From the IMG/VR virus record IMGVR_UViG_3300021256_000074, positions 1 through 64,000 of that record: DNA of 64,000 nt; one strand, 5' to 3'. This document shows, piece by piece, positions 2,447-49,264 of the stretch; positions within the stretch are counted from its first letter, which is position 1; every line of letters starts with the position of its first letter. Below the pieces are notes generated by a model that was not told where the DNA came from, searched no databases, and saw nothing but the letters and a program-made list of their open reading frames with translations. Source of the DNA: a virus. Taxonomy: Duplodnaviria > Caudoviricetes. The translations under genes were made by a program, and so were the position numbers.

Positions 2447-2825
2447 GTTTAATCTGACTTTTTAGTTCTGTAATCATGTTATCTACATCTTTATGATTTC
2501 TCACAAGATATAGCTTTGTTTTTGCGTGATGCTTATGCAAGTAATACTTGAAAAGCTTCCAACGCAAAGGAAAGGAGTCTCCCATAAGGCCTTTACATTC
2601 TACTATAAAACCTCGTCCTATGAAGTCTGGTAGATATGTAATAGGCCTTATTTTCTCTCCTAAGAACTCGAACTTAGGTAGCAGAGTAAAATGCTTTGGC
2701 TCATATTTGACTGGTATCCCAGCCTTCATAAAAGCTTCATACGTATAGAGTTCGAGTTTGCTACGAAAATGTAACCCATACGCATCGACCTTCGTCGCAT
2801 TTTTAACCCTGCCTTTAGATTTCAT
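2433..2825 (-). CDS. PD-(D/E)XK endonuclease (DUF1064 / T7 endonuclease I-like, possible resolvase)
   Basis: FRSKLE...YLPDF...VECKG motifs. Confidence 0.8.
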   Translation of the reverse strand: MKSKGRVKNATKVDAYGLHFRSKLELYTYEAFMKAGIPVKYEPKHFTLLPKFEFLGEKIRPITYLPDFIGRGFIVECKGLMGDSFPLRWKLFKYYLHKHHAKTKLYLVRNHKDVDNMITELKSQIKHGKD

Positions 2826-2967
2826 TCCGTTGTTTTAACAACAGCAGAACAGGCTCGTATTCTTCCTCAAATGCTTTAATATCTGCAAGCAACCTGTAAT
2901 ACATACAAAGACCTCCAGTTATTGCACCGAGTAAGAACGTAAATAAAAAATCTAAGAATTCACACAT
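2815..2967 (-). CDS. Small membrane protein (50 aa, below ORF-track cutoff)
   Basis: MCEFLDFLFTFLLGAITGGLCMYY...; fills the gap and overlaps both neighbours. Confidence 0.6.
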   Translation of the reverse strand: MCEFLDFLFTFLLGAITGGLCMYYRLLADIKAFEEEYEPVLLLLKQRNEI

Positions 2968-3937
2968 ATCTTTCAACTGTTTTAGTTAACCAATCCTTTA
3001 CAGCAAAGAACCCGTTATCACGAACAGCATCGGATATGTCCTTTGCCTTAAATCTCTTATGAACAAATATAGCATCGAAGCCATACTGTTTACTATACTG
3101 TCGAGCAGTTTTCATTCCTGTTTTATCTCTGTCGTATAGTATAACAATATGCTTCCACCTTTCTTTCAATTGCTCTAGTATATCGTCTGGTATAAACGTA
3201 GTTTCACTAGAAGCAGCGATAGCACTAAATCCCATCTCATAAAGACACATCACATCTTTTAAAGATTTTGTGATGATAAGGAGATTACCACCCTCTTGTG
3301 GCAACTCGGCTAGCCCCTGAACGTGCCGATTTGTCAGATTGGTACGCCATTTAGTATACTTTGAGGCTAAAGGTCTATAAATCTTAAACCCGTCAAAGAC
3401 CTTATAGGCATACATAGGACTATCTTCTTTGTAGGTTCCTCTGACGACTCTATTACAAAGAAAGTATTTAATGCTAAACACATTGAATTTCTTCAACGTA
3501 GTTGTCGAAATATGAAACTTATTCCAATACTGTACATCTACATTTGTAAACGGTTGACGTACAATACCGATATCAGTTTCATACAAAACCCCGGGTCGAG
3601 TATACGTATTCTTACGTTTCTCTTGATTTGGGTTTGTCTTACGGACTATCCTCAGAAGTTCTTTTTCAAGCTCTTCACGAGTGTTTATATGACAATAAAG
3701 CTTAATAAACTTTAGAGCATTACCGGATTCACCATTTCCATGGTCTTTGAATAACAATCCTCCTGTTTTACCAGGGAATATTGCAAACGATGGTATCTTA
3801 TCATCTGTTCGCAACGGACTGTTCATCAGTTTCCCAGGTTTAAATGAACCCAGGTAATAAGAATAGATGCTATAATCGTCTACTTTATCCAACAAGTCTC
3901 TGAGACTCATTGTAATAGCAGTTTTTGTACTATACAT
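2960..3937 (-). CDS. DnaG-like DNA primase (TOPRIM)
   Basis: SPLR-x-D-x-x-PSF...FKDHG N-terminal domain; IITKSLKD and LYDRD TOPRIM motifs; KDISD. Confidence 0.88.
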   Translation of the reverse strand: MYSTKTAITMSLRDLLDKVDDYSIYSYYLGSFKPGKLMNSPLRTDDKIPSFAIFPGKTGGLLFKDHGNGESGNALKFIKLYCHINTREELEKELLRIVRKTNPNQEKRKNTYTRPGVLYETDIGIVRQPFTNVDVQYWNKFHISTTTLKKFNVFSIKYFLCNRVVRGTYKEDSPMYAYKVFDGFKIYRPLASKYTKWRTNLTNRHVQGLAELPQEGGNLLIITKSLKDVMCLYEMGFSAIAASSETTFIPDDILEQLKERWKHIVILYDRDKTGMKTARQYSKQYGFDAIFVHKRFKAKDISDAVRDNGFFAVKDWLTKTVERYV

Positions 3938-3957
3938 GGCTTATAGCTCTATTGTAT

Positions 3958-4037
3958 TGGGTGCCAGATGAGATTCGAACTCACATTTCTGTACAATATT
4001 AATTATGTACAGACGTTACCATTACCTTACTGACTCC
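3958..4037 (-). tRNA. Atypical tRNA-like element with a long AT-rich anticodon arm
   Basis: T arm GTGAG-TTCGAAT-CTCAT; acceptor GGAGTCAG/CTGGCACC with one mismatch; stem TCTGTACA/TGTACAGA. Confidence 0.55.
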
Positions 4038-4039
4038 GT

Positions 4040-4363
4040 TTATTGAAAATATGGAAACAACTGCTCCGGATCTTTAAAGTCTTTTAAAAGATACGGGGAT
4101 ACGTAATATTTCCCTATTTTGTAATCTGCATATTTTACTGTTTTCTTCTGCAGATATACCTTTGTGTTTTTATCTGTTACTGGTACAAGCCACCAGTAAT
4201 ATATATCCAAGTTATCTGTCGGCTTATTGCCGAACTTAGATACTAACTTTGGAACAATGTGCTCCTTTTCGAATTCAACATAATCTCCACGTTCACCGTG
4301 TACAATTCGGTTATATCCTGTAGCAAACAGTGTTCCGTTTTTAAGAAATATATTTTCTTTCAT
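4040..4363 (-). CDS. Hypothetical protein
   Basis: 107-aa ORF with ATG and A-rich leader. Confidence 0.75.
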   Translation of the reverse strand: MKENIFLKNGTLFATGYNRIVHGERGDYVEFEKEHIVPKLVSKFGNKPTDNLDIYYWWLVPVTDKNTKVYLQKKTVKYADYKIGKYYVSPYLLKDFKDPEQLFPYFQ

Positions 4364-4465
4364 AATTGTAGTATAGTGAGGACTCGAACCTCATGTATTG
4401 CTCAAACTGCATTTCGATAAAAGTTTTTAATTCAAAACGTTTCATGGCTTATAGCTCTATTGTTT

Positions 4466-4553
4466 TTGTGGAGTATATCGGGGTCGAACCGACTAGAATG
4501 CATTCGGCTGCTACACGGCAAGATAACTTGTCTCCTTAGTGCGCGCACACTCC
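4466..4553 (-). tRNA. Atypical tRNA-like element
   Basis: Acceptor GGAGTGT/ATACTCC-A; T arm GTCGG-TTCGACC-CCGAT; non-canonical interior. Confidence 0.55.
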
Positions 4554-4620
4554 ATAGTCTGCTATCCTCCTCGCAAGTTCATTACATTCTCGTATACCAT
4601 CTTTTTATACATACCCCAAT

Positions 4621-4686
4621 TTGTAGTGTGAAGGGGACTCGAACCCCTTTGTCCAACTGTTCTAAAGCTGGTTACCATGCACACCA
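4621..4686 (-). tRNA. D-armless tRNA-like element, 7-nt loop TTAGAAC (AGA, Ser-type)
   Basis: Acceptor TGGTGTG/CACACTA; T arm AGGGG-TTCGAGT-CCCCT; stem CCAGCT/AGTTGG; 8-nt linker replaces the D arm. Confidence 0.6.
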
Positions 4687-13518: not shown

Positions 13519-13791
13519 ACTATTTTTGATTTTAATTAAACTTCAGTTAGTTGAATTCGAGAACTTACCTACTTGTAATCTATAGCGGAATTGCACCCCT
13601 ATAAATTTATACTAAAATATCCCGTGGAAGGAAGAGCCGCAGCTCTAACCTTCCTAACACCCGCAGATGTTTTGTTGGGGATAAGTTTTATGAAATGCAC
13701 TTCTCAAGTGAGAATAAGTGCTGTTGTTGTACTTGCTTATAGAGCTGATTTACCTTACCGCAGCAGTGTAAACCTAAACGTCGCAACGTCA

Positions 13792-14385
13792 TTAACTCTT
13801 TTCTACTTGTACTCCAACTACACCGAGATCAAACTTAAGAAATGCTCGACCTGTTGCGTCAGGAAATTTCAGTTGTTTCCGGAGACCGTCTGCGTTAACG
13901 TTAATCACCACAGGCTGTCCGTCTACGTACACAGTACGAGCGCTTGCACTTGAACCATTGTTGTCCTGGTCTCCCGCAGAAGACGTGCCACCACTCTTAT
14001 TATTGCATACGTGTTCATAACAGTCGTACAGGCGTTTAACAACCCATTCATAGTCACCAGAGCGCTGTGCTTTCTTGGCGATTTCTGTGCTCAACCCTTC
14101 TTCCAGAGCCTTTGCGTTAGCTCCTTTAGAAAGGTCCATAAGGGCATCCCATACAACCAGAGCCCACTTTTCGAACGGGAGTTCATACTCACATCCGATC
14201 AGTCGGTTCCAGAATCGATACTTTGTTTCACCGAGAATTACAGAGCCGTTTCCACGGATACTGTAAATAACGTATGTTTTACCCTCTTTCTCGCTATTAG
14301 CGTTCTTTACCTTATTACTGATTGTTTCGTCAGTCATAAGGAGATGCATCAAACACAATGCACCGTCAGAAAGAGTGCGATTCAT
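13792..14385 (-). CDS. Hypothetical protein
   Basis: 197-aa ORF. Confidence 0.8.
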   Translation of the reverse strand: MNRTLSDGALCLMHLLMTDETISNKVKNANSEKEGKTYVIYSIRGNGSVILGETKYRFWNRLIGCEYELPFEKWALVVWDALMDLSKGANAKALEEGLSTEIAKKAQRSGDYEWVVKRLYDCYEHVCNNKSGGTSSAGDQDNNGSSASARTVYVDGQPVVINVNADGLRKQLKFPDATGRAFLKFDLGVVGVQVEKS

Positions 14386-14390
14386 ACGGT

Positions 14391-15047
14391 TTATTCCTCA
14401 GTTTTGTTGACCGTTACGATGGTGCCAGAGCCACCGGGCATGTCGACAGATGTCTTCAGAGCGGAGTTGATCCAATTCTCCTCAACACGCCGGGCCTTAT
14501 TCTCGTTGTCGACGATGTCACCCTTCAGGGTAACAACCATCTTCTGACAAGCCTGGATGTGCTCCTCGAGATACATGATCTCGCGGCGCATGGCGTCGTT
14601 CAGAATCTTGGCCAGTGTCTTGGCGTCGAGGAAGAAGTGGTCCTTCTCGCCCTTAATGGCTTCGGCGATAGCTTCTGCAGTGGTCTTACCCATCGAGCGC
14701 AGAGTATTCTCTGTGATAGGCAAGAACAGGTCACAGGTACCATCCTCGTGAGGATTGATAGCAATGCCGATCTCGTCGTCATTCATGGGGTCTTTTACTA
14801 GCACAGTGCCTGCGATGAGGAAATTCTTCGCAAGCAGGCGTTTCGGGCTACGATTGAGGATAAATCCTTTCTTTTCACCCTTTTCGACAGCCAATTTGTC
14901 AGCTTCGAAGCCCTTCTGACCACCTTGCCAGGCCATGCGGACTTCGACCTTGAAGAACTGAGTTCCCAAGTTCGAGCCTATCTTTGAGATAAGCTGAACG
15001 TTATTCGTCACAACAGGTGACGCGATGTTTACATCAATTGTTTTCAT
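14391..15047 (-). CDS. Hypothetical protein
   Basis: 218-aa ORF with strong codon bias. Confidence 0.85.
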   Translation of the reverse strand: MKTIDVNIASPVVTNNVQLISKIGSNLGTQFFKVEVRMAWQGGQKGFEADKLAVEKGEKKGFILNRSPKRLLAKNFLIAGTVLVKDPMNDDEIGIAINPHEDGTCDLFLPITENTLRSMGKTTAEAIAEAIKGEKDHFFLDAKTLAKILNDAMRREIMYLEEHIQACQKMVVTLKGDIVDNENKARRVEENWINSALKTSVDMPGGSGTIVTVNKTEE

Positions 15048-15059
15048 TCTTTCTTATCC

Positions 15060-17400
15060 TATTTGATATCGTGGTTGATCCACCAACGATAAGAATAAAT
15101 ACTTCCTCCACTTTTGGCGGGAGGTTAACCCTTGAGTCGCTACGCGTAACTAGACTTTTCTTCATCTGTTAGTGTGGCGATATATGTTTTTTTGTGCGTC
15201 CACGGCTCAAGGCTCTACTGTGGATGGTCTTTTCAATTTTTTGATTTTTATCATTTATCCGTACTTATGAGAGGAATGTTTTTAGCTTTCCATCATTAGG
15301 TTGTTTCCGGCTATTTTGACTTACATAATCGATGTATCGACTGTATTCAAAAGGGGACCAACTGGTATGGTCATCCATGCCCATCATCGGAAGATTCTTC
15401 TAACTTTGGTAAAACTACAAACGTGGATGTTGTGTAATCAAACACAAAATTTACTTGAACCATAAAGTTTATTTTTCGTAAAACTTATACTGAGTTGGTA
15501 TTACCCAGCATCGTTATGTAGCGTTAAAGTAGCTACCCCGTTGGCAAAATTTCATTTCTGACTAATGCTCATAGGACTCCACAAAAATTTGTAATATCTC
15601 CGCTAGTGTATTTTCCGAACAATAGTGAATCTACTACGCTGTACGTCTCTGATTATTTTACAAGCCTAACAGCTACATACAAAACGTGCTTGGAGGTTCC
15701 TTTTCTTAACGGTGTGACTGTGCACCTACGTAGTAAACATACGTTTCATTATCGGACGGTACGTTAGTTCCAGAGCTAACTACCCTACGGCTTTTTGTTG
15801 TACATTCAGCTTTGCTGCTGTCTTCTGTTTTATCTCTCATTTCTTCGAGATGTGCGCGAATACTGGAGGAATTTCACCTCATACATCTAGATTTATCACC
15901 CACCTAAAGATTCGCTTCTCCGGTTTCCATTTTTACTACTTATGCATAAAGCATAAGGTTCATCCTGGTCGCTTTACCCCTCCTAGACAGGGAGGTGATA
16001 CTTCACTTCACGATAGGCTGCCTTGCATCTGAATTTCTTCATTTGTCATGTATACGACTTCATGGTCCGAACGCACCATCTAGATTTGCTGTCTAGACTT
16101 CTGGTCTACCCATCTTGTCAATTTGCTTCTCAGGAACGGTTGGCACACGACTTTCCTACATCCCACATAAAATGGCTACTGCTTCCCATACAACGGGAGC
16201 TATGGTTTCCAACGCCAGTATATAACGTAATATGCTTGGTAGGGGGACGGTCATTTCTTGTTATACACAACACTATTGTTATGCATTATTTGGTTTTGGT
16301 TCTGATTTATTTTCGTAAGAAGTATCTTTGTCTAAATATAAGCATTCATACATAGTATATAGCTTACTACTCTACAGGGACTACGTAATATAGTTCTTAT
16401 AAGTGACCCTTCTAACTATCTTCATCTTTCCCTCAATAGCCGCTTTTCATATATACTGGAATGTATACTTACTCGGACGGACCGTTGTTTTTGGTTACAA
16501 TTGCATGTATAACCGCATTTTTTGACTGTAAAGTAGTCACCTATGACATAAGTAGCATTTCCTCTTGCTTATATCAATCTTTACCACTAACGTTGCTTGC
16601 CTACTAACAACAATAATGTTTAGAATAGTCTTATCTACGCGGACTTCACTCGCTCTGTGGCTGCATCCCACAGGTGTCTCATTCTGCTTTTATATACCGC
16701 ACGAACGATCAAGGCTAGGCGGTCGCATCTCAACATAATCAGCCGTTTTACCTTCCTACTCCCCCTACGCTGTACAAGCAACAGAAGGCACTGGACTTGA
16801 ACCAGACTGGACTTACGTAGGCGCCATATTTACGATACAGCTTATGAGTATTATCCTCATAATATTGTTTACTCAATGCGTTTTTTCGGGCCTCAATGCA
16901 GGCTTTGGAGACCTGTGAACACTACCCTACGGCTTTTGTGAACTGATACATCATGTTTATTTGTGGAGGCCTACTCTAGTCGTATACCGATATCATTGCA
17001 GACAATACCATACCATGTATATTCTCTCCCACAGTATAAGTTTTCGGCCGTTATAAACATGTTTCAACTCGTGTAACGTTATACTAATCTAATGTATCAT
17101 CAATTAGCATGTCCGATACGTGTACGTTTTGCGCGATTGGCAACTCGCGACTCATGTGTCTTTATCCATTACTCCATCACCAGACGGTTCTCATGGTGGA
17201 AAGGGTTGATACAAACACTCTCCCTCTTACTGTACGCTTTTCAACTATGTAGTACTCATAGAACGTCGCAGTATTTCATCCTACCTTTTGGGTTTCTCAC
17301 CTTTTGAGAAGGCTAACATATTCTCGGATCAAGTTGTACTATTTCGCACCTGGGCTAATGAGACCCACCTGAAACGTGCTTACCTGTTATCAAGGAAGAC
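15060..17400 (-). ncRNA. Candidate large structured non-coding RNA locus
   Basis: About 2.3 kb with no credible ORF; many short hairpins with GNRA-type loops on the minus strand; internal 17-bp direct repeat. Confidence 0.45.
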
Positions 17401-17412
17401 TGAGCTCAAAGC

Positions 17413-17949
17413 TCAATCGTCTACCTTGATGTGATACTCAGTGGTATCCCCTACAGAGGAATTGAGATTTTCAGGACATATTTCGTCTACTTTGTGCACT
17501 TCATAGACTGATATGCATTCTCCTGTGGGCCCTTCCTTGTTACCCACCTGCGTTGCTAGATAGTAAACCGGCACCCGGATGGTGTCTGACTTTACTATTG
17601 GCTTGGGTGCAGGAGCCCTACGCCATTTGACCTTAGTTACCTGTCTTCTCTGCTCCAAGTCGACAATACGCTGTTTGAGCGAATCGACTATTGCAGAATC
17701 AACTCCAACAGAGGTCTGTTCTGTTGTGTTGAGACCCTTCTTTTTAGCCAGGTCTAGTAAAAGATCCTGGGGTATTATCGGGTAAGCAATGGTACCAGTA
17801 TCTGTAGATGGAAGTCTAAGATAAGGCAGCGTTGCAGCCGATAGTGTTTTATATCCTGACCCAGGCGATGGGTCTGATGCAGTTACAGCCATCATGATTC
17901 CTGAAATCGCAAAAGCTATACTGCAAAGGATAGATGTTACTTTTCTCAT
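17413..17949 (-). CDS. Secreted or membrane-anchored hypothetical protein
   Basis: N-terminal signal/TM segment; 178 aa. Confidence 0.75.
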   Translation of the reverse strand: MRKVTSILCSIAFAISGIMMAVTASDPSPGSGYKTLSAATLPYLRLPSTDTGTIAYPIIPQDLLLDLAKKKGLNTTEQTSVGVDSAIVDSLKQRIVDLEQRRQVTKVKWRRAPAPKPIVKSDTIRVPVYYLATQVGNKEGPTGECISVYEVHKVDEICPENLNSSVGDTTEYHIKVDD

Positions 17950-18074
17950 AGTTTGATACTATTTGATAAGTTTGTAACCAACTTTACGACGTAACCCGAT
18001 ACAAGTCACAGTAACGTAGTCGTGCCAAAGGTTTTTCACGCGGTCAGTGAAGGATGGCTCGTATTCACTGACCT

Positions 18075-19520
18075 TTATGCGTTTTTTCCTTCGCCAGGCT
18101 TCTCCTCTGTGGCAGGTGCCTTCTCCAGCTCAGTCACGTTGGCTTCTGAGAAGTCAACCAACTGTTCCATAGCTGGCAGGAACATGTTGCAGATGATACC
18201 TACGTACTGATGCAGGTTGTGGACCAGATTCTCCTGTTCCATCTCCTTAGCCTTTATGCCAGGATAGTACGTCTCAAGAATCTTGGAACCCATCATGCGG
18301 GCAAACTTGTAACCCTCACGCGAGCTGTCCTTGTAGTCGTCGGGGAACGCGTCGATGATATCGCGGCTAGGCATGTTGACGAAGGTAACAACCTCCTCAA
18401 TGTCTTCGATATACTTCTTTGCAGAAGCAATCTTATCCTCACCCTGCTTAATCGCAGTAGCGTTCTTCTTGGCGTCCTTCTTGAGAGCCTCGAGATTCTT
18501 GTGATAGCCGTCTATCAGCTCGTTTGCAGTCTGAATCTCAGAGTCTGCATACCAGCGAACCAAGACCTTCACGATGTCGGCGACAAGCGTGTCGTCTATC
18601 TGAGGCATGCCGGTGGTCTTGTTCAGAGAAGCGTTGCGCATCATACAGAAGGAAACCACAGGATTCTTCGTACGCTGCACATTCTCGAACAGCATCTTTG
18701 CCATACCACCAACGGTAAAGGTACACTTACCGAGCAGATGAGCAATCTCAGAGAGGAAATCGCAGCGGCTTTTCTGCTTAAGAGCGGCCAGAGCTTCTTC
18801 TTTGTTCTCTTCTTTACTTGCCTGCAGGCTACGATACGATTCGTAGAAGTTGATAGCGGTGGACACCTTGTCGTAGAAACTCTCGTTACCACCGTTGCCC
18901 TTGACGAGGATGTGCAACAGAGACTCCTTCAGCTGGTCATCGTTCTCGATCTTTGTGGGATCGTTGATAACCTTCTTCTCGGCAGCGGCACGCTCTTCAG
19001 CAGCCTTCTGCTTGACCTCCTTAGAGGGCTTTATTGCGGTTGAAGGAAGTTCTATCACACCTTCGTCGTTAGGCTCGGGCAGGGCCTTCATGTCGATGTT
19101 GACGTTGAGGGCACTGGCTGCCTCAAGCAGCTTCTCGAGCTGTGTACGACGCATTGCGATTGCAAACGGAGTCTGCGCGATAGAAACCTCGTTGACGAGC
19201 ATAGCCACCATACCGACAGCAGTGATCTCGTTGATCTTGTCAACGCTCTCCTGCGAGATGTTATAGCGCTTTGCTGCCTCCTTGTCGTCGAAGAATCGCT
19301 TGTCCAGGAGGTGCAAGAGATCCTCGGTGTGGTTTGGATCGAGACCAGCGAGTGCACGAGTCTGTGCGAGCTTGTCAAGATCACCAAGCTGTATTACAGC
19401 TATTTTGTCGTTTGCGGACTTACCGGCGGCTGCGCCAGTCTTTCCTGTCTCAGGAGCAGCCTGCTGTGCTGCTGCCTGCTGTGCTGCACTCTGAGCAGCG
19501 TTTTTCTTATTCTTTCCCAT
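18075..19520 (-). CDS. Hypothetical protein (481 aa, probably highly expressed)
   Basis: Strong codon bias; TTATCAAAATG start context. Confidence 0.88.
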   Translation of the reverse strand: MGKNKKNAAQSAAQQAAAQQAAPETGKTGAAAGKSANDKIAVIQLGDLDKLAQTRALAGLDPNHTEDLLHLLDKRFFDDKEAAKRYNISQESVDKINEITAVGMVAMLVNEVSIAQTPFAIAMRRTQLEKLLEAASALNVNIDMKALPEPNDEGVIELPSTAIKPSKEVKQKAAEERAAAEKKVINDPTKIENDDQLKESLLHILVKGNGGNESFYDKVSTAINFYESYRSLQASKEENKEEALAALKQKSRCDFLSEIAHLLGKCTFTVGGMAKMLFENVQRTKNPVVSFCMMRNASLNKTTGMPQIDDTLVADIVKVLVRWYADSEIQTANELIDGYHKNLEALKKDAKKNATAIKQGEDKIASAKKYIEDIEEVVTFVNMPSRDIIDAFPDDYKDSSREGYKFARMMGSKILETYYPGIKAKEMEQENLVHNLHQYVGIICNMFLPAMEQLVDFSEANVTELEKAPATEEKPGEGKNA

Positions 19521-19595
19521 TTTGATAATGTTTTTAAGAATGTAGATACTGTGTGGTTGGCTAGACCACTTAGCTGTGCCAATGGATTACTATCT

Positions 19596-20018
19596 TCATC
19601 CATCATGATGTGTTGAAGAAACCTTCGTTAAGCATTCCGGCGGTTTTGTAAGTGTTTTTGTTGGTTGGTCTCGAGTTCTCCCGAAGACCTTACTTGAAAT
19701 AGCAGAAGTCTCGTGTTCTTCAGGTGTGAATGCCTGAACCGCAGATTCTAAAGCTGTCACCTTTGTGGGCGTCAACGATGTATCTGCCAAAAGGTAAACA
19801 ATACTGTTACCTGATACAACCGTTGGCATCTGCGTGGGACACACCTGCACGAGATTCTCACTACTTCGTTCATTACCGATGGTACGAGTGACCATTACGG
19901 TTGCTGCATATCCTAAGATGAAGGATATAGCAAGCTGCCAGAAAAGCTTATTGCTCTTGTTATAGCGAGCTATTCCAAAAGCTAAGGCCATTCCTAAAAT
20001 GAACCACAGTAGGATCAT
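19596..20018 (-). CDS. Membrane protein translationally coupled to the sigma factor
   Basis: Two N-terminal hydrophobic segments; ATGA overlap with sigma stop. Confidence 0.75.
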   Translation of the reverse strand: MILLWFILGMALAFGIARYNKSNKLFWQLAISFILGYAATVMVTRTIGNERSSENLVQVCPTQMPTVVSGNSIVYLLADTSLTPTKVTALESAVQAFTPEEHETSAISSKVFGRTRDQPTKTLTKPPECLTKVSSTHHDG

Positions 20019-20581
20019 GTTTTGATGTTTAATGATTTTTTAACTTTGCGTCGGGTTCTTGACAGCATAGACTTTACAGTCCCTACTGGAACCCTCAGCG
20101 ATTTACCGATTTGTTCTACAGTCATATTATTCACATAGAAGAGTTTGCATACCTTACGAGTGGTATCCGGAAACTTGTCAAACTCAGCAAGTAAATGTTC
20201 GTAAGTTAGACGGTTGACAATGTCGTCTTCTGACGAACCACTTGTCTCTTCTAATGGCAGTCTACCATCAGCTTCTCCAAGTACATTGCTTTTGTTCTTC
20301 ATTTCTCGCAAATAATCAATTGCAGTTCGGTTGGCAATAGTTCTCAGCCATCCTCCAAAGGAGTCATAAGCTGTGAACAATGAGAGTTTATTGTGCACTT
20401 TTAAGAACACGATGTTTGTAACATCTTTCGCCTCGTCCATATCTTTTATATACTGAAAGAGTAAGTTATCAACAAACCCTTTGTATCTGTGGAACAGTGC
20501 ACTGAAAGCAGATTCATCACCTGCTTGCGCTCTTTTGATAAGAGTAATCTCTTCGGAAGTAATTCGGGGATTTTTACTCAT
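20015..20581 (-). CDS. ECF-family RNA polymerase sigma factor
   Basis: AQAGDESAF, EAKDVT-x-x-VFLK, FGGWLRTIA-x-RTAIDYLR (region 2); EQIGKSL-x-x-PVGTVKSMLSR (region 4). Confidence 0.92.
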   Translation of the reverse strand: MSKNPRITSEEITLIKRAQAGDESAFSALFHRYKGFVDNLLFQYIKDMDEAKDVTNIVFLKVHNKLSLFTAYDSFGGWLRTIANRTAIDYLREMKNKSNVLGEADGRLPLEETSGSSEDDIVNRLTYEHLLAEFDKFPDTTRKVCKLFYVNNMTVEQIGKSLRVPVGTVKSMLSRTRRKVKKSLNIKT

Positions 20582-20669
20582 ACCAAACAAATAGAATTAA
20601 GTAACGATAGAGTACACTACCGAGTGGTTATTAACCTCAAATGAGATATAACAGACACTAGCTGTATAG

Positions 20670-21767: not shown

Positions 21768-21780
21768 GTTTGTTATGTTT

Positions 21781-21829
21781 TGGGGTGAGGTGGGGATTCG
21801 AACCCCATAGCCCATGCAGCTCCTCACCC
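21781..21829 (-). ncRNA. Mini tRNA-like element (acceptor plus T arm)
   Basis: GGGTGAGG/CCTCACCC stem; TGGGG-TTCGAAT-CCCCA T arm; small AGC/GCT hairpin. Confidence 0.65.
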
Positions 21830-21839
21830 ATTCCCACTT

Positions 21840-22140
21840 TGGTAGGTCTAGGTCAACCGACTTCACGCTGCCTCCTGGAGGCCCGTGTAGTCTGCAATGT
21901 TATTATTGCCGTTTAAATTTATATCAGAGCGCTTGTCTTACGACTGTCTTACTTTCTGCTGCCGTCTAAACCGGTCAAGCCCAAATATGCCGGTTTTAGT
22001 TAATATTTTATGTGGATACCCCGACACCGGCAAACGTCCGCTCCACTCAGTACCCAAGTTCTCTGTACCGAAGTGGACCTGGAGGGAGTCGAACCCTCGT
22101 CCGAACAGCTTATCCTCAGACACGCTAAGATTCTTGTTGT
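21840..22140 (-). ncRNA. ssrA: Circularly permuted (two-piece) tmRNA gene, tag peptide GNNNIADYTGLQEAA
   Basis: 3' module GGACGAGGGTTCGACTCCCTCCAGGTCCA (~22102-22074) lies upstream of 5' module GGGCTTGACCGGTTTAGACGGC (from 21982); acceptor GGGCTTG/CAGGTCC has G3:U70; tag ORF 21910-21863 ends AA-TGA; outer boundaries approximate. Confidence 0.88.
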
Positions 22141-22284
22141 GAACATCTTGATGATCAGTCAAAACGTTCGATTTAAGGCTATTTAAAGCCGTTCTAAGAC
22201 GTTTTCTCTACTCTCATGGATAGCTGGTCCACTTAAGCTTTAAAGACGCTTAAAAACAAACTTTTCAATACTCTTAAATAAGGT

Positions 22285-28188: not shown

Positions 28189-28222
28189 AATTTGATATTT
28201 GGTTTTTTGAGACAAACTTTCC

Positions 28223-28399
28223 CTATTGTCTCTTTAGGGTTATTTCTTTTACAGGCTGAGCCGGCTTGTCTGCTTTTGGCTGTGTTGGCAGACTGTCTGG
28301 TTCATACTCTCTGTAGGTTGGCGTTATGTGCTCTGTTAATAAGAGCAGAGATAGCACTGACAACGTCAAAATCAGTGCTATGATTAATTTTTTCTTCAT
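28223..28399 (-). CDS. Small exported protein (58 aa)
   Basis: MKKKLIIALILTLSVLSLLLL signal-like N-terminus; TAG stop. Confidence 0.55.
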   Translation of the reverse strand: MKKKLIIALILTLSVLSLLLLTEHITPTYREYEPDSLPTQPKADKPAQPVKEITLKRQ

Positions 28400-28534
28400 A
28401 TTTATTGATTAAAATGTTTCTATTCAAAGATGTGAGGAATACGGGTACCTCACTATATCGGACGCCATCTCCGACTTTGTGGCAGGCAAAAATGTCATGG
28501 CTAAGTAAAAACCTGCCACCTTCGATGTTTGATG

Positions 28535-28590
28535 AAAGTCCCTTCTGTATTTATGCGGGCTTAGGACCGCCGTTGGCTACATTAGACTTC
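28535..28590 (-). ncRNA. Twister self-cleaving ribozyme (type P1)
   Basis: GAAGTC-TAA-TGTA-GC-CAACG-GCGG-TCCTAA-GC-CCGC-ATAAA-TACA-GAAGG-GACTTT matches the twister layout (P1, UAA, P2, GC, P4 loop); predicted cut between 28584 and 28583. Confidence 0.92.
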
Positions 28591-28913
28591 AATAAAGAGA
28601 GATACACTGCAATCTGACTCACGACAATACTTTGACGTATTCGATTTACCAGATAGCACCTTAAGATTCGCGTAGTGGTGCAGTGTAGTAGTTCTAACAA
28701 TCCTCTGGGTACGAGACCTCATAACTACGTCTATAGGTTTTGTTCCCTACAGAGTGGCGTGTGGTCACATAGTCTCTACCAGCGTAACTTTCAACATGTG
28801 GTCTCATTGTTTTAGTATGTTTCTTATTTTTGTAATCAACATGACTAACCCAATGAAGATAGCAGCTGCGATACCGAACGCAGCCACTGTTACGAAGAAT
28901 GATTTTAGAATAA

Positions 28914-29213: not shown

Positions 29214-29239
29214 ATGTTGTTTTTGAATTGATTTCAAAT

Positions 29240-29273
29240 AAAAGAACTGCTATCTTCACAGACTGCAGTTCTC
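29240..29273 (-). terminator. GNRA-capped terminator family member
   Basis: GAACTGC-AGTCTGTGAAGATA-GCAGTTC-TTTT. Confidence 0.72.
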
Positions 29274-29415
29274 ACATCGCTTCTAGGGTTAAATATAAAA
29301 GTAATTAAAGCCAGTACAAACACTTTATTCCACCGCTGTGGAGCGCTTGTACTGATGTGTACATGTAGAATATTTGGATGCAACATGTATATATTTTAGA
29401 TGGGGAACTTCTATC

Positions 29416-29449
29416 AAAAGAACTACTATCTTCGCAGACTGTAGTTCTT
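29416..29449 (-). terminator. GNRA-capped terminator family member
   Basis: AAGAACTAC-AGTCTGCGAAGATA-GTAGTTCTT-TT. Confidence 0.72.
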
Positions 29450-29546
29450 CGTCTCCACCGCTGTGGAGACATGGCTTCAAAAGATATCAGCTAACCTTAA
29501 AACCTGATAACTAAGAACAACTATATTTTAAACGAACACTCCATTT

Positions 29547-29579
29547 AAAAGAACTGCTATTCTCACGAACCACAGTTCT
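29547..29579 (-). terminator. GNRA-capped terminator family member
   Basis: GAACTGT-GGTTCGTGAGAATA-GCAGTTC-TTTT. Confidence 0.72.
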
Positions 29580-30900
29580 CAACTCTGTCAAATGAAAAAT
29601 AGAGTTTTAATGAGACTTCAAATAAAGGAGCAGGAGGCCATCCCTGCTCCCCACCAACGGGATGTTGCCATACTAACGGTCTATTGGTGGTCTCGATCCG
29701 CGTTCGGCCGCTCGCGTTTAACCCTTCCGAGCGTAAGGTATATTTTAAATGGGAGAGACTAGGCTTTCACTCTCCCTGTACGCCTAAAACCTTTCACAGC
29801 GCTTTGGACAGTAATTCACACTGACACATAGACAATCCTTTAACCTTACTAAGATCGCCTTAAGTAATATACTACTAAGTTTCGGACGATATATTACTTT
29901 GTCATCGTAGGTATATCTACGACTATCTAAATCAACTCTGACCAGTATCATTAGAAAGCAGAGCAGTGTTTTTGAGTATTACATGTGTTTTTCCTGCATT
30001 ACACACACTTCTTTATTGACGTTTAGTCAGAACGTCTCCAGTACTCTATATGTATTGTTGTTGTGTTCAAACAAAAAGTGGGAGAGTTGCTGAGTACAGA
30101 CCAACATCGCTCTCCCTTCTACATTGCACCTCCTTCGTGCTAGGATGTGTAGCGCATCACAGTGCCTCACTTATCACCCGAGACCAGGCTAGCACACACA
30201 GGCAATTGGTACGCTCTACCTAGACCAATTGATCGTTAAATCGGCGCGTTTACACAATTTTTATCATACATCTACACTGGTCTTTCAGTGTTGACCAAGA
30301 TGTATTTAGCCCTATTCGTCCCAATATGGGACTTTCGTGTGTGCAATTTACATTAAACTCCAGGGTGTACAACGGTCAAATCATACACCCTTTCAACGTT
30401 AATTGAATTGATGTTTGAAGTGTGAACAGTCGATATTCACTTTCCTTTGACCGGCGACCAAACCCGAGGATTACTTAATTGTACATAATAGTAATGATAG
30501 CGACTTACGATCCAACTTCGCGGCGTCGTAGCGTAGTATCAGCTATCCTAATTTGGAGTTTAACATATGTCCACTTATTTATTGGTGAACAAAATTAGCG
30601 GTTTCAGTTTATCTTACCGCAAACTTAACTGTTCTGGCTCACTACCATTTACAGATAACTTTCCCCCTCTTTGGTTGGCATGGTTAAGGGAACCACCAGC
30701 TTCACGCACATCGACTTTATCTATTATAGTGCGTTGCTACATTTAGTTTAACGTCGGCCGGTTGTAGCTCCTCGACGCACACAGTGTACCAAATTAAAGC
30801 TGGAAGATATTTGGGCTGTGTTTCATATCTTTGTTTTCGGCATACGTTCGCCCTGGATGTTTTGACTCATCCGACACATTTCGTGTCCGTTTGTGAATAA

Positions 30901-30955
30901 TACTGTTTCGGCTCATGCCATCATCAGGCCACGGACTTTTACCGTGACGACAGTA
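30901..30955 (-). ncRNA. Type III hammerhead ribozyme
   Basis: TACTG-TC/GTCACGG-TAAAAGT-CCGTGGC-CTGATGA-T-GGC-ATGA-GCC-GAAA-CAGTA; GUC site with predicted cut 30949/30948; one extra U after A9. Confidence 0.88.
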
Positions 30956-31010
30956 AACAAGATAAAGTTTGAGCAGTTTAAAGTCTTGCTCAGGACCGGA
31001 GCCTTAGAGT

Positions 31011-36512: not shown

Positions 36513-36587
36513 TGGTCTATGGTGTAGCGGTAGCACGGGAGGCTCTAACCCTCCAGGTCCGGGTTCGACTCGATGGTAGGCCGACCA
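36513..36587 (+). tRNA. Amber suppressor tRNA (anticodon CTA), Gln-type body
   Basis: TGGTCTA/TAGGCCG-A-CCA acceptor; GGAGG-CTCTAAC-CCTCC with CTA at 36545-36547; irregular T stem. Confidence 0.9.
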
Positions 36588-49153: not shown

Positions 49154-49264
49154 GCGCGGTTAGCTTAGTGGTAAAGCGGGAGACAGGCTCATACATGAGT
49201 TTCGGAAGCACCTTAGTGATAGAAAGTATCATAGCCGAGGGTTCGATTCCCTCACCGCGCGCAA
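49154..49264 (+). tRNA. tRNA-like RNA with an expanded (~55-nt) anticodon domain
   Basis: GCGCGGT/ACCGCGC acceptor; D arm AGCTTAGTGGTAAAGC; GAGGG-TTCGATT-CCCTC T arm; two internal hairpins. Confidence 0.7.

Follow-up and report, generated by a model that had tools for sequence, protein, structure and literature searches.

The ornate RNAs known from phages, GOLLD and ROOL, are usually well below 2.0–2.4 kb in length, and OLE RNA, an ornate, large, extremophilic RNA, forms a ribonucleoprotein with OapA, OapB and OapC. Triple-helix H-type pseudoknots are known from the telomerase RNA pseudoknot and from the SAM-II, SAM-V and preQ1-II riboswitch aptamers. Both GOLLD and ROOL are large, occur in phages and prophages, and form RNA-only cages (PMC12286853). 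The locus described here, a gap of ~2.4 kb in the genome of a crAss-like phage, is undescribed in Rfam 15 and in the literature searched, and by covariance-model comparison it matches no known RNA family. A cmscan of the whole window (the 64,000-nucleotide stretch of phage DNA that was analysed), which had been proposed as a check in a first-pass annotation of this DNA, returned no match within 15–17.4 kb at Rfam gathering scores. At E≤5 the sole match within 14500–18000 was to mcrA, at 14 bits and by chance, and at E≤10 the sole match within 16600–16960 was an 11.6-bit snoRNA. None of the covariance models of GOLLD (RF01998), ROOL (RF03087) or the other large RNAs in Rfam matched the locus, nor did those of SSU and LSU rRNA, group I and group II introns, RNase P, twister and other ribozymes, riboswitches or telomerase. 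Searched against all 101 kb of the genome, the LSU model found nothing, while it did match 13 of 14 control genomes, and rRNA mimicry was rejected, the short resemblances to 16S motifs being in the wrong order and lacking covariance-model support.

The phage, from cattle-gut or rumen samples, has a complete 101.1-kb genome and is Oafivirinae-like within Suoliviridae. The gap (15048–17412) lies between the stop of a 178-aa gene (17413–17949, minus strand) and the ATG, at 15047, of a 218-aa gene (14391–15047, minus strand), both of which are complete and have full-length homologues. It sits within a co-directional gene block, 3.3 kb from the nearest tRNA, and is accompanied by a phage sigma factor, a permuted tmRNA and a TAG-suppressor tRNA. 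RefSeq records leave the gap empty, and small spurious ORFs are annotated across it in one GenBank record. The absence of a credible ORF, claimed in the first-pass annotation, was borne out, as no ORF of at least 60 aa in the gap survived comparison under table 11, TAG=Q or table 4. The frequent TAA and TGA stops noted there were also found, with TAA, TAG and TGA each occurring 6–24 times per frame in all six frames; no recoding therefore opens the gap, and TAG=Q and TGA=W were each rejected on this account.

A homologous gap of 2.0–2.4 kb was found at the same position in 34 non-redundant relatives. A nhmmer profile built from these homologues covered 15043–17387 on the minus strand, filling the gap, and matched the 101.1-kb genome only there (17387–15043, score 1226), making the locus single copy. 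All 34 representatives carry a full-length homologue with every module present and in one order, and relatives that had seemed to have a shorter gap (~1.5 kb) proved to carry the full-length locus beneath spurious ORFs. The genes before the gap are, in order, the sigma factor, a small gene, a ~480-aa gene and a small gene. The gap follows the same genes in the Oafivirinae cr273_1, cr130_1, cr131_1, cr124_1 and Bohxovirus, in the unclassified Dulem virus 42, and also in Loutivirinae (cr4_1, cr56_1), Boorivirinae (cr1_1) and Bearivirinae (cr6_1), giving at least four subfamilies of Suoliviridae in all. Profile matches were colinear in Loutivirinae and Boorivirinae, where two separate islands alone keep sequence similarity across subfamilies (HMM 62–241 and 1007–1347, in cr4_1, cr56_1 and cr1_1); the cr6_1 locus had no sequence match to the profile. 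Between distant genera the locus retains 72–75% nucleotide identity over ~700 nt, with flanking proteins ~32% identical, and the gap averages 0.57 in pairwise nucleotide identity, compared with 0.44 for a neighbouring gene. A pattern scan of genome contigs gave six true matches, on contigs of Segatella, Bacteroidaceae and Lachnospiraceae MAGs, two of them ~101 kb long, the size of the whole phage genome, and found no copy in a clearly bacterial context. Five further pattern matches lacked profile support, as expected by chance, L115 and L119 lying inside a 592-aa ORF.

Homologue collection with a covariation analysis, likewise proposed at first pass, revealed covariation that held up against controls. 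RNAalifold assigned the 34 representatives a consensus fold of −229.6 kcal/mol with 206 consensus pairs, 137 of which show two-sided changes; column shuffles of the same alignment yielded −6 to −9 kcal/mol and 18–30 pairs. Canonical pairs fill 89.6% of cells at the consensus pairs, compared with 35–42% when the partners were slid. In the core domain the proportion paired is 91.9% (36–43% when slid), and the covariation score of 0.614 (0.09–0.14 when slid) was reached by none of 500 shuffles. Among pairs with Watson–Crick covariation in folds of both strands, G.U outnumbered A.C by 487 to 233 on the minus strand, which is the strand of the genes flanking the gap. The predicted fold comprises at least 40 short helices, mostly of 4–8 bp, with conserved 7-nt loops and A-rich conserved strands between them. 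The region had been called hairpin-dense, a description that found no echo in folding energy: when the single window sequence was compared with dinucleotide shuffles, MFE z-scores were +0.40 for the 300-nt core, −0.48 for the 5' 1 kb and −2.46 for the 3' 1 kb. Support for the structure is comparative, not energetic, and on these alignments a conserved RNA-level structure very probably exists at the gap.

The following features are all on the minus strand and are given from 5' to 3'. The locus opens with a hairpin, GGGTCTCATTAGCCC (17351–17367; 6 bp, 93% canonical, four two-sided pairs), with a nearly invariant loop, CATT in 32 of 34 relatives, and an outer GCAC/GTGC stem that lengthens the window copy. 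A 5' domain follows (17275–17332), coinciding with the first cross-subfamily island (HMM 62–241), in which an outer helix (17332–17326 / 17281–17275; 96% canonical, five covarying pairs) encloses a hairpin (17316–17309 / 17303–17296; 95% canonical, four covarying pairs), and the CUC of the hairpin loop can pair with a downstream GAG in a pseudoknot-like arrangement. A helix at 17098–17094 / 16949–16945, with all five pairs two-sided and 92% canonical, closes a variable insert of 57–150 nt. The first copy of an exact 17-mer repeat, AAAAGCCGTAGGGTAGT (16921–16937), comes next and leads into an extended hairpin (16888–16937) with helices at 16927–16924 / 16891–16888 and 16916–16911 / 16903–16899 (four and five covarying pairs), the tip of which (16915–16899) has a 5-bp stem and a 7-nt, anticodon-loop-like loop, CUCCAAA. 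Two adjacent 6-bp hairpins (16823–16862) carry the conserved 7-nt loops GAUAAUA and YCGUAAM; their helices (helices 1–3 of alignment A5) are 83–99% paired, and every pair varies. A T-loop-type hairpin follows at 16790–16807 (5 bp, four covarying pairs), its loop being UUCAAGU in the window, TTCGATT in 18 of 34 relatives and TTAGATT in 5 of 34. ARAGORN and RF00005 detected no tRNA in the locus, and a tRNA-like domain was rejected, as the CUCCAAA and T-loop hairpins stand ~100 nt apart without a cloverleaf and are dissimilar to the phage's own tRNA-Trp.

The most conserved part of the locus is a core of 47 nt (16677–16723; alignment A7, 83% column identity) with two interleaved, covariation-supported stems, the arrangement that defines an H-type pseudoknot. 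Stem 1 pairs 16723–16719 with 16700–16696 and stem 2 pairs 16710–16703 with 16684–16677, and overall 88.6% of the core is paired, against 32–45% when partners were slid. Four of the eight pairs of stem 2 show two-sided changes (pair 26–45 is UA in 16 and CG in 13), and four of the five pairs of stem 1 are invariant, with one clade showing a compensated change from C-G to A-U if its gap is shifted. Loop 1 (16713–16711) consists of pyrimidines lying over stem 2, for which C.G-C and U.A-U major-groove triples are proposed, and loop 3 (16695–16685) is A-rich. Column 14 of loop 1 and column 45 of stem 2 are UA in 21 and CG in 13 of the 34 representatives, without exception, and this combination has switched independently at least seven times on the tree; columns 15–46 and 16–47 combine U with A in 100% and 91%. 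The three-way rule is obeyed by 47 of 58 distinct cores. What is new here, at the level of aligned sequences, is a ~50-nt core in which loop 1 covaries perfectly with a stem-2 pair as base triples would. This covariation fits a parallel triplex, and it is compatible with Hoogsteen geometry as well as with another tertiary or alternative pairing. The pseudoknot model of the core (R1) had no counterpart at E≤1 in the loci of Loutivirinae, Boorivirinae or Bearivirinae.

Downstream of the core, a hairpin at 16673–16655 (helix 5, all six pairs covarying) precedes a second small pseudoknot, the two occupying 16627–16673; the pseudoknot has a GCG/CGC first stem (16653–16638), within whose loop AGUC pairs with GACU (16645–16627), and helix 6 of alignment A5 is 99% paired with two covarying pairs. 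An AU-rich linker at 16242–16290 has the family consensus UUAACAUGUUUAACAAA and is degenerate in the window copy (...UAUAACAAGAAAUGACC). Its motif, TTAACATGTTTAAC, was seen a single time in each of 74 loci and nowhere else, and it is therefore not a general promoter motif. The middle domain (15946–16244), the second cross-subfamily island (HMM 1007–1347), contains helices at 16244–16239 / 16159–16154, 16199–16183, 16149–16137 (the GUGCCAACCG block), 16098–16078 and 15959–15946, with 4–7 covarying pairs per helix. Nested helices of 8 and 8 bp (15851–15904; 95% and 82% canonical, three covarying pairs each) include the GAGGTGAAATTCCTC hairpin (15884–15860), and the second 17-mer copy (15779–15795) overlaps the 5' arm of a 7-bp hairpin at 15789–15753 (96% canonical, three covarying pairs), the two spanning 15753–15795. 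The 3' domain (15100–15740) is less conserved and is homologous in all representatives, with full HMM coverage and covarying hairpins at 15445–15432 and 15382–15353, and the locus ends with a 3'-terminal hairpin (15053–15093; 6 bp, five covarying pairs) directly upstream of the ATG of the next gene. The motifs quoted at first pass were all located on the minus strand where they had been placed (GAGGTGAAATTCCTC at 15866–15880, CTGGTTCAAGTCCAG at 16791–16805 and both 17-mer copies). The loop of the GAGGTGAAATTCCTC hairpin, offered as an example of GNRA-like hairpins, is 7–8 nt long and not a tetraloop, most conserved hairpins of the family having 7-nt loops; at the 3' end the reported AGARC hairpin was not identified, and the hairpin found there is the covarying one at 15093–15053.

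The first-pass annotation had suggested that the minus strand holds structured RNA, either a single very large molecule or several in tandem, and this is supported by the synteny, covariation, G.U bias, lack of codon periodicity and absence of an Rfam match. The gap is accordingly read as a candidate gene, or closely packed group of genes, for a structured minus-strand ncRNA of very large size, with a probability of roughly 55%, and a single transcript is slightly favoured over several. The locus would be transcribed within a long leftward early/middle operon that includes the phage sigma factor, and the RNA would fold into at least 40 short helices and several pseudoknots, with a triple-helix H-type pseudoknot as its near-invariant core. 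In infected cells, one RNA of 2.0–2.4 kb could then serve as a trans-acting, compactly folded scaffold that either binds protein or self-assembles as GOLLD and ROOL do, the triplex pseudoknot forming its structural or ligand- or partner-binding centre; a scaffold or assembly function is put forward only as a guess. Equally speculative is the proposal that the single 2.0–2.4-kb transcript constitutes one rRNA-sized particle built around the triplex pseudoknot, with a function of its own while Bacteroidales hosts are being infected. Such a particle might be a catalytic, ligand-sensing or ribonucleoprotein machine, perhaps serving phage takeover of transcription or translation, a connection suggested because the locus travels with the sigma factor, the permuted tmRNA and the TAG-suppressor tRNA. 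In four RNA-library studies, contigs span the locus, its flanks alike and both borders; these may derive from carried-over phage DNA, their depths cannot rank genes, and they carry neither ends nor strand. Among the neighbouring proteins only the sigma factor matched Pfam and PHROGs, and none matched the ESM Atlas. The 178-aa protein is poorly conserved and has a signal-peptide-like N-terminus. Foldseek found no PDB match for models of the 218-aa protein (pLDDT 81) or the 481-aa protein (pLDDT 78), and VIA-align matched only a long helix of the former (Z≤4.4). Family and structure searches of the neighbours thus gave no RNA-related lead.

The strongest alternative, possible but less favoured, is that the locus encodes several independent structured RNAs, for example a ~1.1-kb 5' unit and a ~1.1-kb 3' unit acting separately, cut from one precursor or made from their own promoters. 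Helices with support stay local, good covariation extending over 153 nt at most, and no helix spanning more than ~350 nt showed convincing two-sided covariation, so no such helix ties the halves of the locus into one fold. The unique AU-rich motif, which follows a poorly conserved AU-rich spacer, splits the locus near 16270, similarity across subfamilies is confined to the two islands, and evolution is faster in the 3' 600 nt than in the remainder, all of which agrees with separate units. Against this, modules are never missing, duplicated or reordered in the 34 representatives, and profile searches in both directions found no match between the halves, which are not paralogues and did not arise by internal duplication. 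Nor was an internal sigma-70-type promoter or intrinsic terminator found on the minus strand, in a scan blind to promoters of Bacteroidota or of the phage sigma factor.

That same scan result, together with the co-directional block, would also suit a cis-acting element of the operon, in which the gap is a giant spacer or leader controlling processing, stability or translation of the flanking genes. The covarying hairpin immediately before the next start codon and the RNA-library contigs that cross both borders agree with this explanation, which is nonetheless unlikely, as more than 2 kb with 206 consensus pairs, near-invariant loops and pseudoknots far exceeds what known leaders and attenuators need, and the locus is better conserved in sequence than the genes that it would regulate.

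A DNA-level element, such as a replication origin, packaging site or recombination hotspot with hairpins in DNA, would account for a locus that is non-coding and rich in inverted repeats, but it is highly improbable. The ~2:1 excess of G.U over A.C on one strand is not expected of DNA hairpins, and the locus has no iterons or tandem repeats, its only repeat being the 17-mer pair. Cumulative GC skew has no inflection at 15–17 kb and reaches its minimum near 33–34 kb, at the divergent strand switch, and 127-bp direct terminal repeats at the genome ends indicate that the packaging ends are not at the locus; replication and packaging signals are thereby placed elsewhere, and neither outcome named at first pass as refuting an RNA, a replication origin or a decayed gene, applies. 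Least probable of all is that a protein gene here has decayed, been recoded or been split by ORF-less self-splicing introns. TAG recoding and many group I introns are known in delta-group crAss-like phages (PMC7886860), and this phage's own late genes need TAG=Q. Yet stops of all three kinds fill every frame of the gap, its column conservation lacks the period-3 signal that a neighbouring gene shows at lags 3 and 6, and relatives differ by indels whose lengths are not divisible by three. The genes on either side are complete, and even at E≤5–10 the locus matched no model of an intron, ribozyme or rRNA.

A conserved 2-kb RNA element has gone unannotated at a fixed place in the genomes of this family. 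If expressed as one RNA, it would raise the upper size limit of structured phage RNAs far above GOLLD and ROOL, provide structural biologists with a large, new natural RNA fold whose proposed triplex pseudoknot core is directly testable, and point to an RNA-based step in crAss-like infection that is invisible to protein-centred annotation. Should the single particle with its own function prove real, it would be the largest functional structured ncRNA of any bacterial virus and a new RNA class.

Compared with described systems, the hairpin at 16807–16790 resembles the T-loop hairpins of tRNA, RNase P and rRNA in its covarying 4–5-bp stem and its 7-nt loop fitting UUCRANY, but lacks a surrounding cloverleaf. 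Like triple-helix pseudoknots, the 47-nt core has two stems that interleave, pyrimidines in loop 1 that would run parallel to the purine strand of stem 2, and an A-rich loop 3 facing the G-C-rich stem 1; it differs in lying inside a 2-kb RNA and not in a 5' leader, and its triplex is deduced from covariation alone. OLE RNA, with which there is no homology, is likewise a large conserved structured RNA and has dedicated proteins encoded nearby, a model for a possible scaffold role, whereas the neighbours of this locus have no recognisable RNA-binding fold or family. Although nothing in Rfam 15 matched it in sequence or structure at any of the thresholds applied, and although it is not next to tRNA genes and consists mainly of short 7-nt-loop hairpins, the locus resembles GOLLD and ROOL: all are phage-encoded, very large and non-coding, and their dense structure includes numerous conserved loops and pseudoknots.

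The gene-free gap at 15048-17412 occurs in a complete genome of 101,100 bp with direct terminal repeats of 127 bp, the first 64 kb of which form the window. Searches with the gap (blastn) and with the neighbouring sigma factor at 20015-20590 (tblastn) placed this crAss-like phage in the family Suoliviridae, with Oafivirinae (Buhlduvirus, Chuhaivirus, Cacepaovirus, Burzaovirus and Bohxovirus) as the closest classified relatives; the public runs in which the sequence occurs are gut metagenomes of cattle and sheep. Relatives in RefSeq, GenBank and IMG/VR carry a 2.0-2.4-kb gap at the same position, within the gene order sigma factor, small gene, gene of ~480-570 aa, one or two small genes, gap, gene of ~200 aa and gene of ~190 aa, an arrangement also present in cr4_1 and cr56_1 (Loutivirinae), cr1_1 (Boorivirinae) and cr6_1 (Bearivirinae). 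The gap is unannotated in the RefSeq records and filled with small spurious ORFs in one GenBank record. In Dulem virus 42 (PP511876.1), the homologous gap at 2513-4630 is annotated with about ten 'hypothetical proteins' of 30-100 aa on both strands, and these small ORF calls are almost certainly spurious.

Searching IMG/VR with a degenerate pattern built on the most conserved part brought up 100 stretches, and the 69 sequences containing the whole region were reduced to 34 representatives below ~88% identity. The resulting profile spans every representative end to end (1.96-2.35 kb), matches the phage genome once (17387-15043) and gives colinear matches within the Loutivirinae and Boorivirinae gaps; it found no match in the Bearivirinae gap, where the correspondence is by synteny alone. 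Apparent 1.5-kb gaps in some relatives proved to hold a full-length homologue with chance ORFs overlying its 3' part. Distant genera share 72-75% nucleotide identity over ~700 nt, compared with ~32% identity of the flanking proteins, and mean pairwise nucleotide identity is 0.57 in the gap and 0.44 in the downstream gene aligned likewise. Conservation is highest from ~17390 to 15740, and weaker yet homologous from 15740 to 15050.

The first-pass annotation had described the region as hairpin-dense, which as a thermodynamic claim for a single sequence fails against dinucleotide shuffles (z-scores of +0.40 for the core 300 nt, -0.48 for the 5' 1 kb and -2.46 for the 3' 1 kb), so that the case for structure must rest on comparison with relatives, which supplies support. 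The motifs it quoted were all recovered on the minus strand at the positions it gave, including an exact 17-mer at 16921-16937 and 15779-15795, and the hairpin it took to be GNRA-like actually has a loop of 7-8 nt. Comparative folding of the 34 representatives with RNAalifold gave -229.6 kcal/mol, with 206 pairs in 42 helices and two-sided changes in 137 pairs; column shuffling (n=3) left 18-30 pairs at -6 to -9 kcal/mol. Standard pairs occupy 89.6% of cells, a share that falls to 35-42% if the 3' partner is shifted 1-3 columns. In the core domain (16625-16870) these values are 91.9% and 36-43%; doubly changed cells number 218 in register and 16-55 when slid, the covariation score drops from 0.614 to 0.09-0.14, and the observed score was not reached in any of 500 shuffles.

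The most conserved 50 nt of the locus form an H-type pseudoknot (16723-16677, minus strand; 83% column identity in the core alignment), in which stem 1 pairs ACCGC with GCGGU and stem 2 pairs GGUCGUUY with RAAUGACC. Stem 2 covaries, its closing pair switching between U-A (16 representatives) and C-G (13). The loop-1 pyrimidine at window position 16713 (column 14 of the core alignment) covaries without exception with the closing-pair purine, in 34/34 representatives (U/A in 21, C/G in 13), and the following two loop-1 residues are U, facing the next two A-U pairs. Either U/U/A or C/C/G occupies the three positions in 47 of 58 distinct core sequences, with at least seven state changes at these positions on the tree of representatives. 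Loop 1 and the purine strand are parallel, and the A-rich loop 3 faces the G-C-rich stem 1. Loop 1 and stem 2 thus carry the pattern of U.A-U and C+.G-C major-groove triples, making this a candidate triplex whose Hoogsteen geometry lies beyond proof from sequence.

The supported helices are mostly local and of 4-8 bp, many closing conserved 7-nt loops (CUCCAAA, GAUAAUA, YCGUAAM, the T-loop-type UUCGAUU, GUUGUAA, CAGCAAA and CUGUCUC), and are linked by conserved A-rich strands. A second, smaller pseudoknot follows the core pseudoknot (16653-16627, minus strand), and the 5' domain holds another pseudoknot-like arrangement. An AU-rich motif with the consensus UUAACAUGUUUAACAAA, degenerate in the window, splits the locus near 16270; with one copy per locus and none elsewhere, it does not qualify as a general promoter motif. 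The two halves were also considered as paralogues, which was rejected as neither half's profile matched the other. The modules always occur together in fixed order, and a minus-strand scan inside the locus for sigma-70-type promoters and intrinsic terminators, whose scope excluded Bacteroidota and phage-sigma promoters, found neither. This constant order and the absence of an internal sigma-70-type signal incline us towards a single transcript of 2.0-2.4 kb; the lack of supported long-range pairs holds this reading back and leaves independent RNAs in tandem as a possible, if doubtful, arrangement. A covarying hairpin lies just ahead of the next gene's ATG (15093-15053, minus strand); that the locus as a whole is a cis-acting operon element is improbable.

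Strand was addressed by pooling helices from folds of either strand and keeping those with Watson-Crick to Watson-Crick changes, among which G.U pairs outnumber A.C 487 to 233. This excess assigns the RNA to the minus strand of the window, on which the flanking genes also lie. The comparative evidence argues for a conserved, structured RNA-level element on this strand, with a probability of roughly 0.9. A DNA element is very unlikely, since DNA hairpins would not give such asymmetry; moreover, the turning point of cumulative GC skew lies near 33-34 kb, away from the locus, and the terminal repeats constitute the packaging ends. A broken or recoded gene is scarcely credible: as first proposed, there is no credible ORF in 15048-17412, whether read with table 11, TAG=Q or table 4, and each of the six frames holds 6-24 copies apiece of TAA, TAG and TGA, which speaks against recoding, and column-conservation correlations decay smoothly over lags 1-6 (0.56, 0.43, 0.32, 0.22, 0.18 and 0.13), whereas the control, the neighbouring gene, peaks at lags 3 and 6 and so bears the codon signature.

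The minus strand carries the genes of the first ~34 kb and the plus strand those beyond, and TAG must be read as an amino acid in the late genes. Many ORF gaps of 500-1400 nt seen under the standard code in the late half (55-98 kb of the genome) disappear with TAG=Q, indicating that TAG is recoded in late genes only. The window also encodes tRNA-Trp, a CUA-anticodon TAG suppressor tRNA (36513-36587, plus strand; labelled 'Pyl' by ARAGORN) and a permuted two-piece tmRNA (21772-22166, minus strand; ARAGORN; RF04321, 62 bits) with the tag peptide GNNNIADYTGLQEAA, the same permuted gene being annotated in cr130_1. An Rfam tRNA match of 46.8 bits over 108 nt (49154-49261, plus strand), where ARAGORN made no call, could represent a tRNA interrupted by an intron or long insertion. 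A strong, though sub-threshold, type-P1 twister ribozyme match (RF03160; 28537-28588, minus strand; 49.8 bits, E 2.3e-9, below the gathering score of 67.2) sits inside a region that is ORF-poor under the standard code (28216-28913). A second such region, 29238-31010 and especially 30240-31010, comprises 1.77 kb without an ORF of at least 80 aa, of which 771 nt remain ORF-free with TAG=Q; against Rfam at E<=1 it gave nothing beyond one 22-bit chance-level match.

In four RNA-library studies of bovine and sheep gut, contigs with 90-99% identity lie over the locus and span both borders (for example, X2 contig pieces at 13638-15907, 16048-17301 and 17273-20553). The flanking genes are likewise covered, and the contigs are without strand or ends and may include DNA carry-over, so transcription cannot be inferred from this coverage. 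By far the highest summed depth among these contigs is in the tmRNA bin, a value probably inflated by conserved tmRNA or tRNA-like sequences from other organisms.

Apart from the sigma factor, the adjacent proteins matched no Pfam or PHROG family. The upstream 178-aa protein (17413-17949, minus strand) is small and fast-evolving (mean column identity of 25% among its homologues), with a signal-peptide or lipoprotein-like N-terminus (consensus MKKLTTILC..AFAI.G). The downstream 218-aa protein is modelled as an alpha/beta domain with a long helix (pLDDT 81), and had no Foldseek match in PDB and VIA-align matches to the helix only; the 481-aa protein model is mostly helical (pLDDT 78), again with no Foldseek PDB match. 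These searches therefore gave no lead to a protein partner.

Nothing in Rfam 15 matched at gathering scores, at E<=5 for the locus or at E<=10 for the core, the LSU model matched nowhere in the genome and ARAGORN found no tRNA inside the locus, which failed every family membership test run. The core pattern, scanned against one genome per prokaryote species, gave six true matches, on MAG contigs of Segatella, Bacteroidaceae and Lachnospiraceae, two of them on contigs of ~101 kb, the size of a whole phage genome; five further matches without profile support, two inside a 592-aa ORF, are about the number expected by chance. The searched literature yielded no description of the locus. The locus goes unmentioned in the principal comparative paper for these phages, whose topics include recoding, introns and unusual non-coding regions in the Zeta group. 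We rate the locus as a new RNA class.

As a tentative working model, drawn by analogy with GOLLD and ROOL, the RNA would act in trans as a compactly folded scaffold organised around the candidate triplex pseudoknot, forming a ribonucleoprotein or self-assembling particle. Large ornate RNAs of unknown function are loose descriptive company only for this locus. U.A-U and C+.G-C major-groove triples are known in the telomerase RNA pseudoknot and in the SAM-II and preQ1-II aptamers, which the candidate triplex of the core pseudoknot would resemble.
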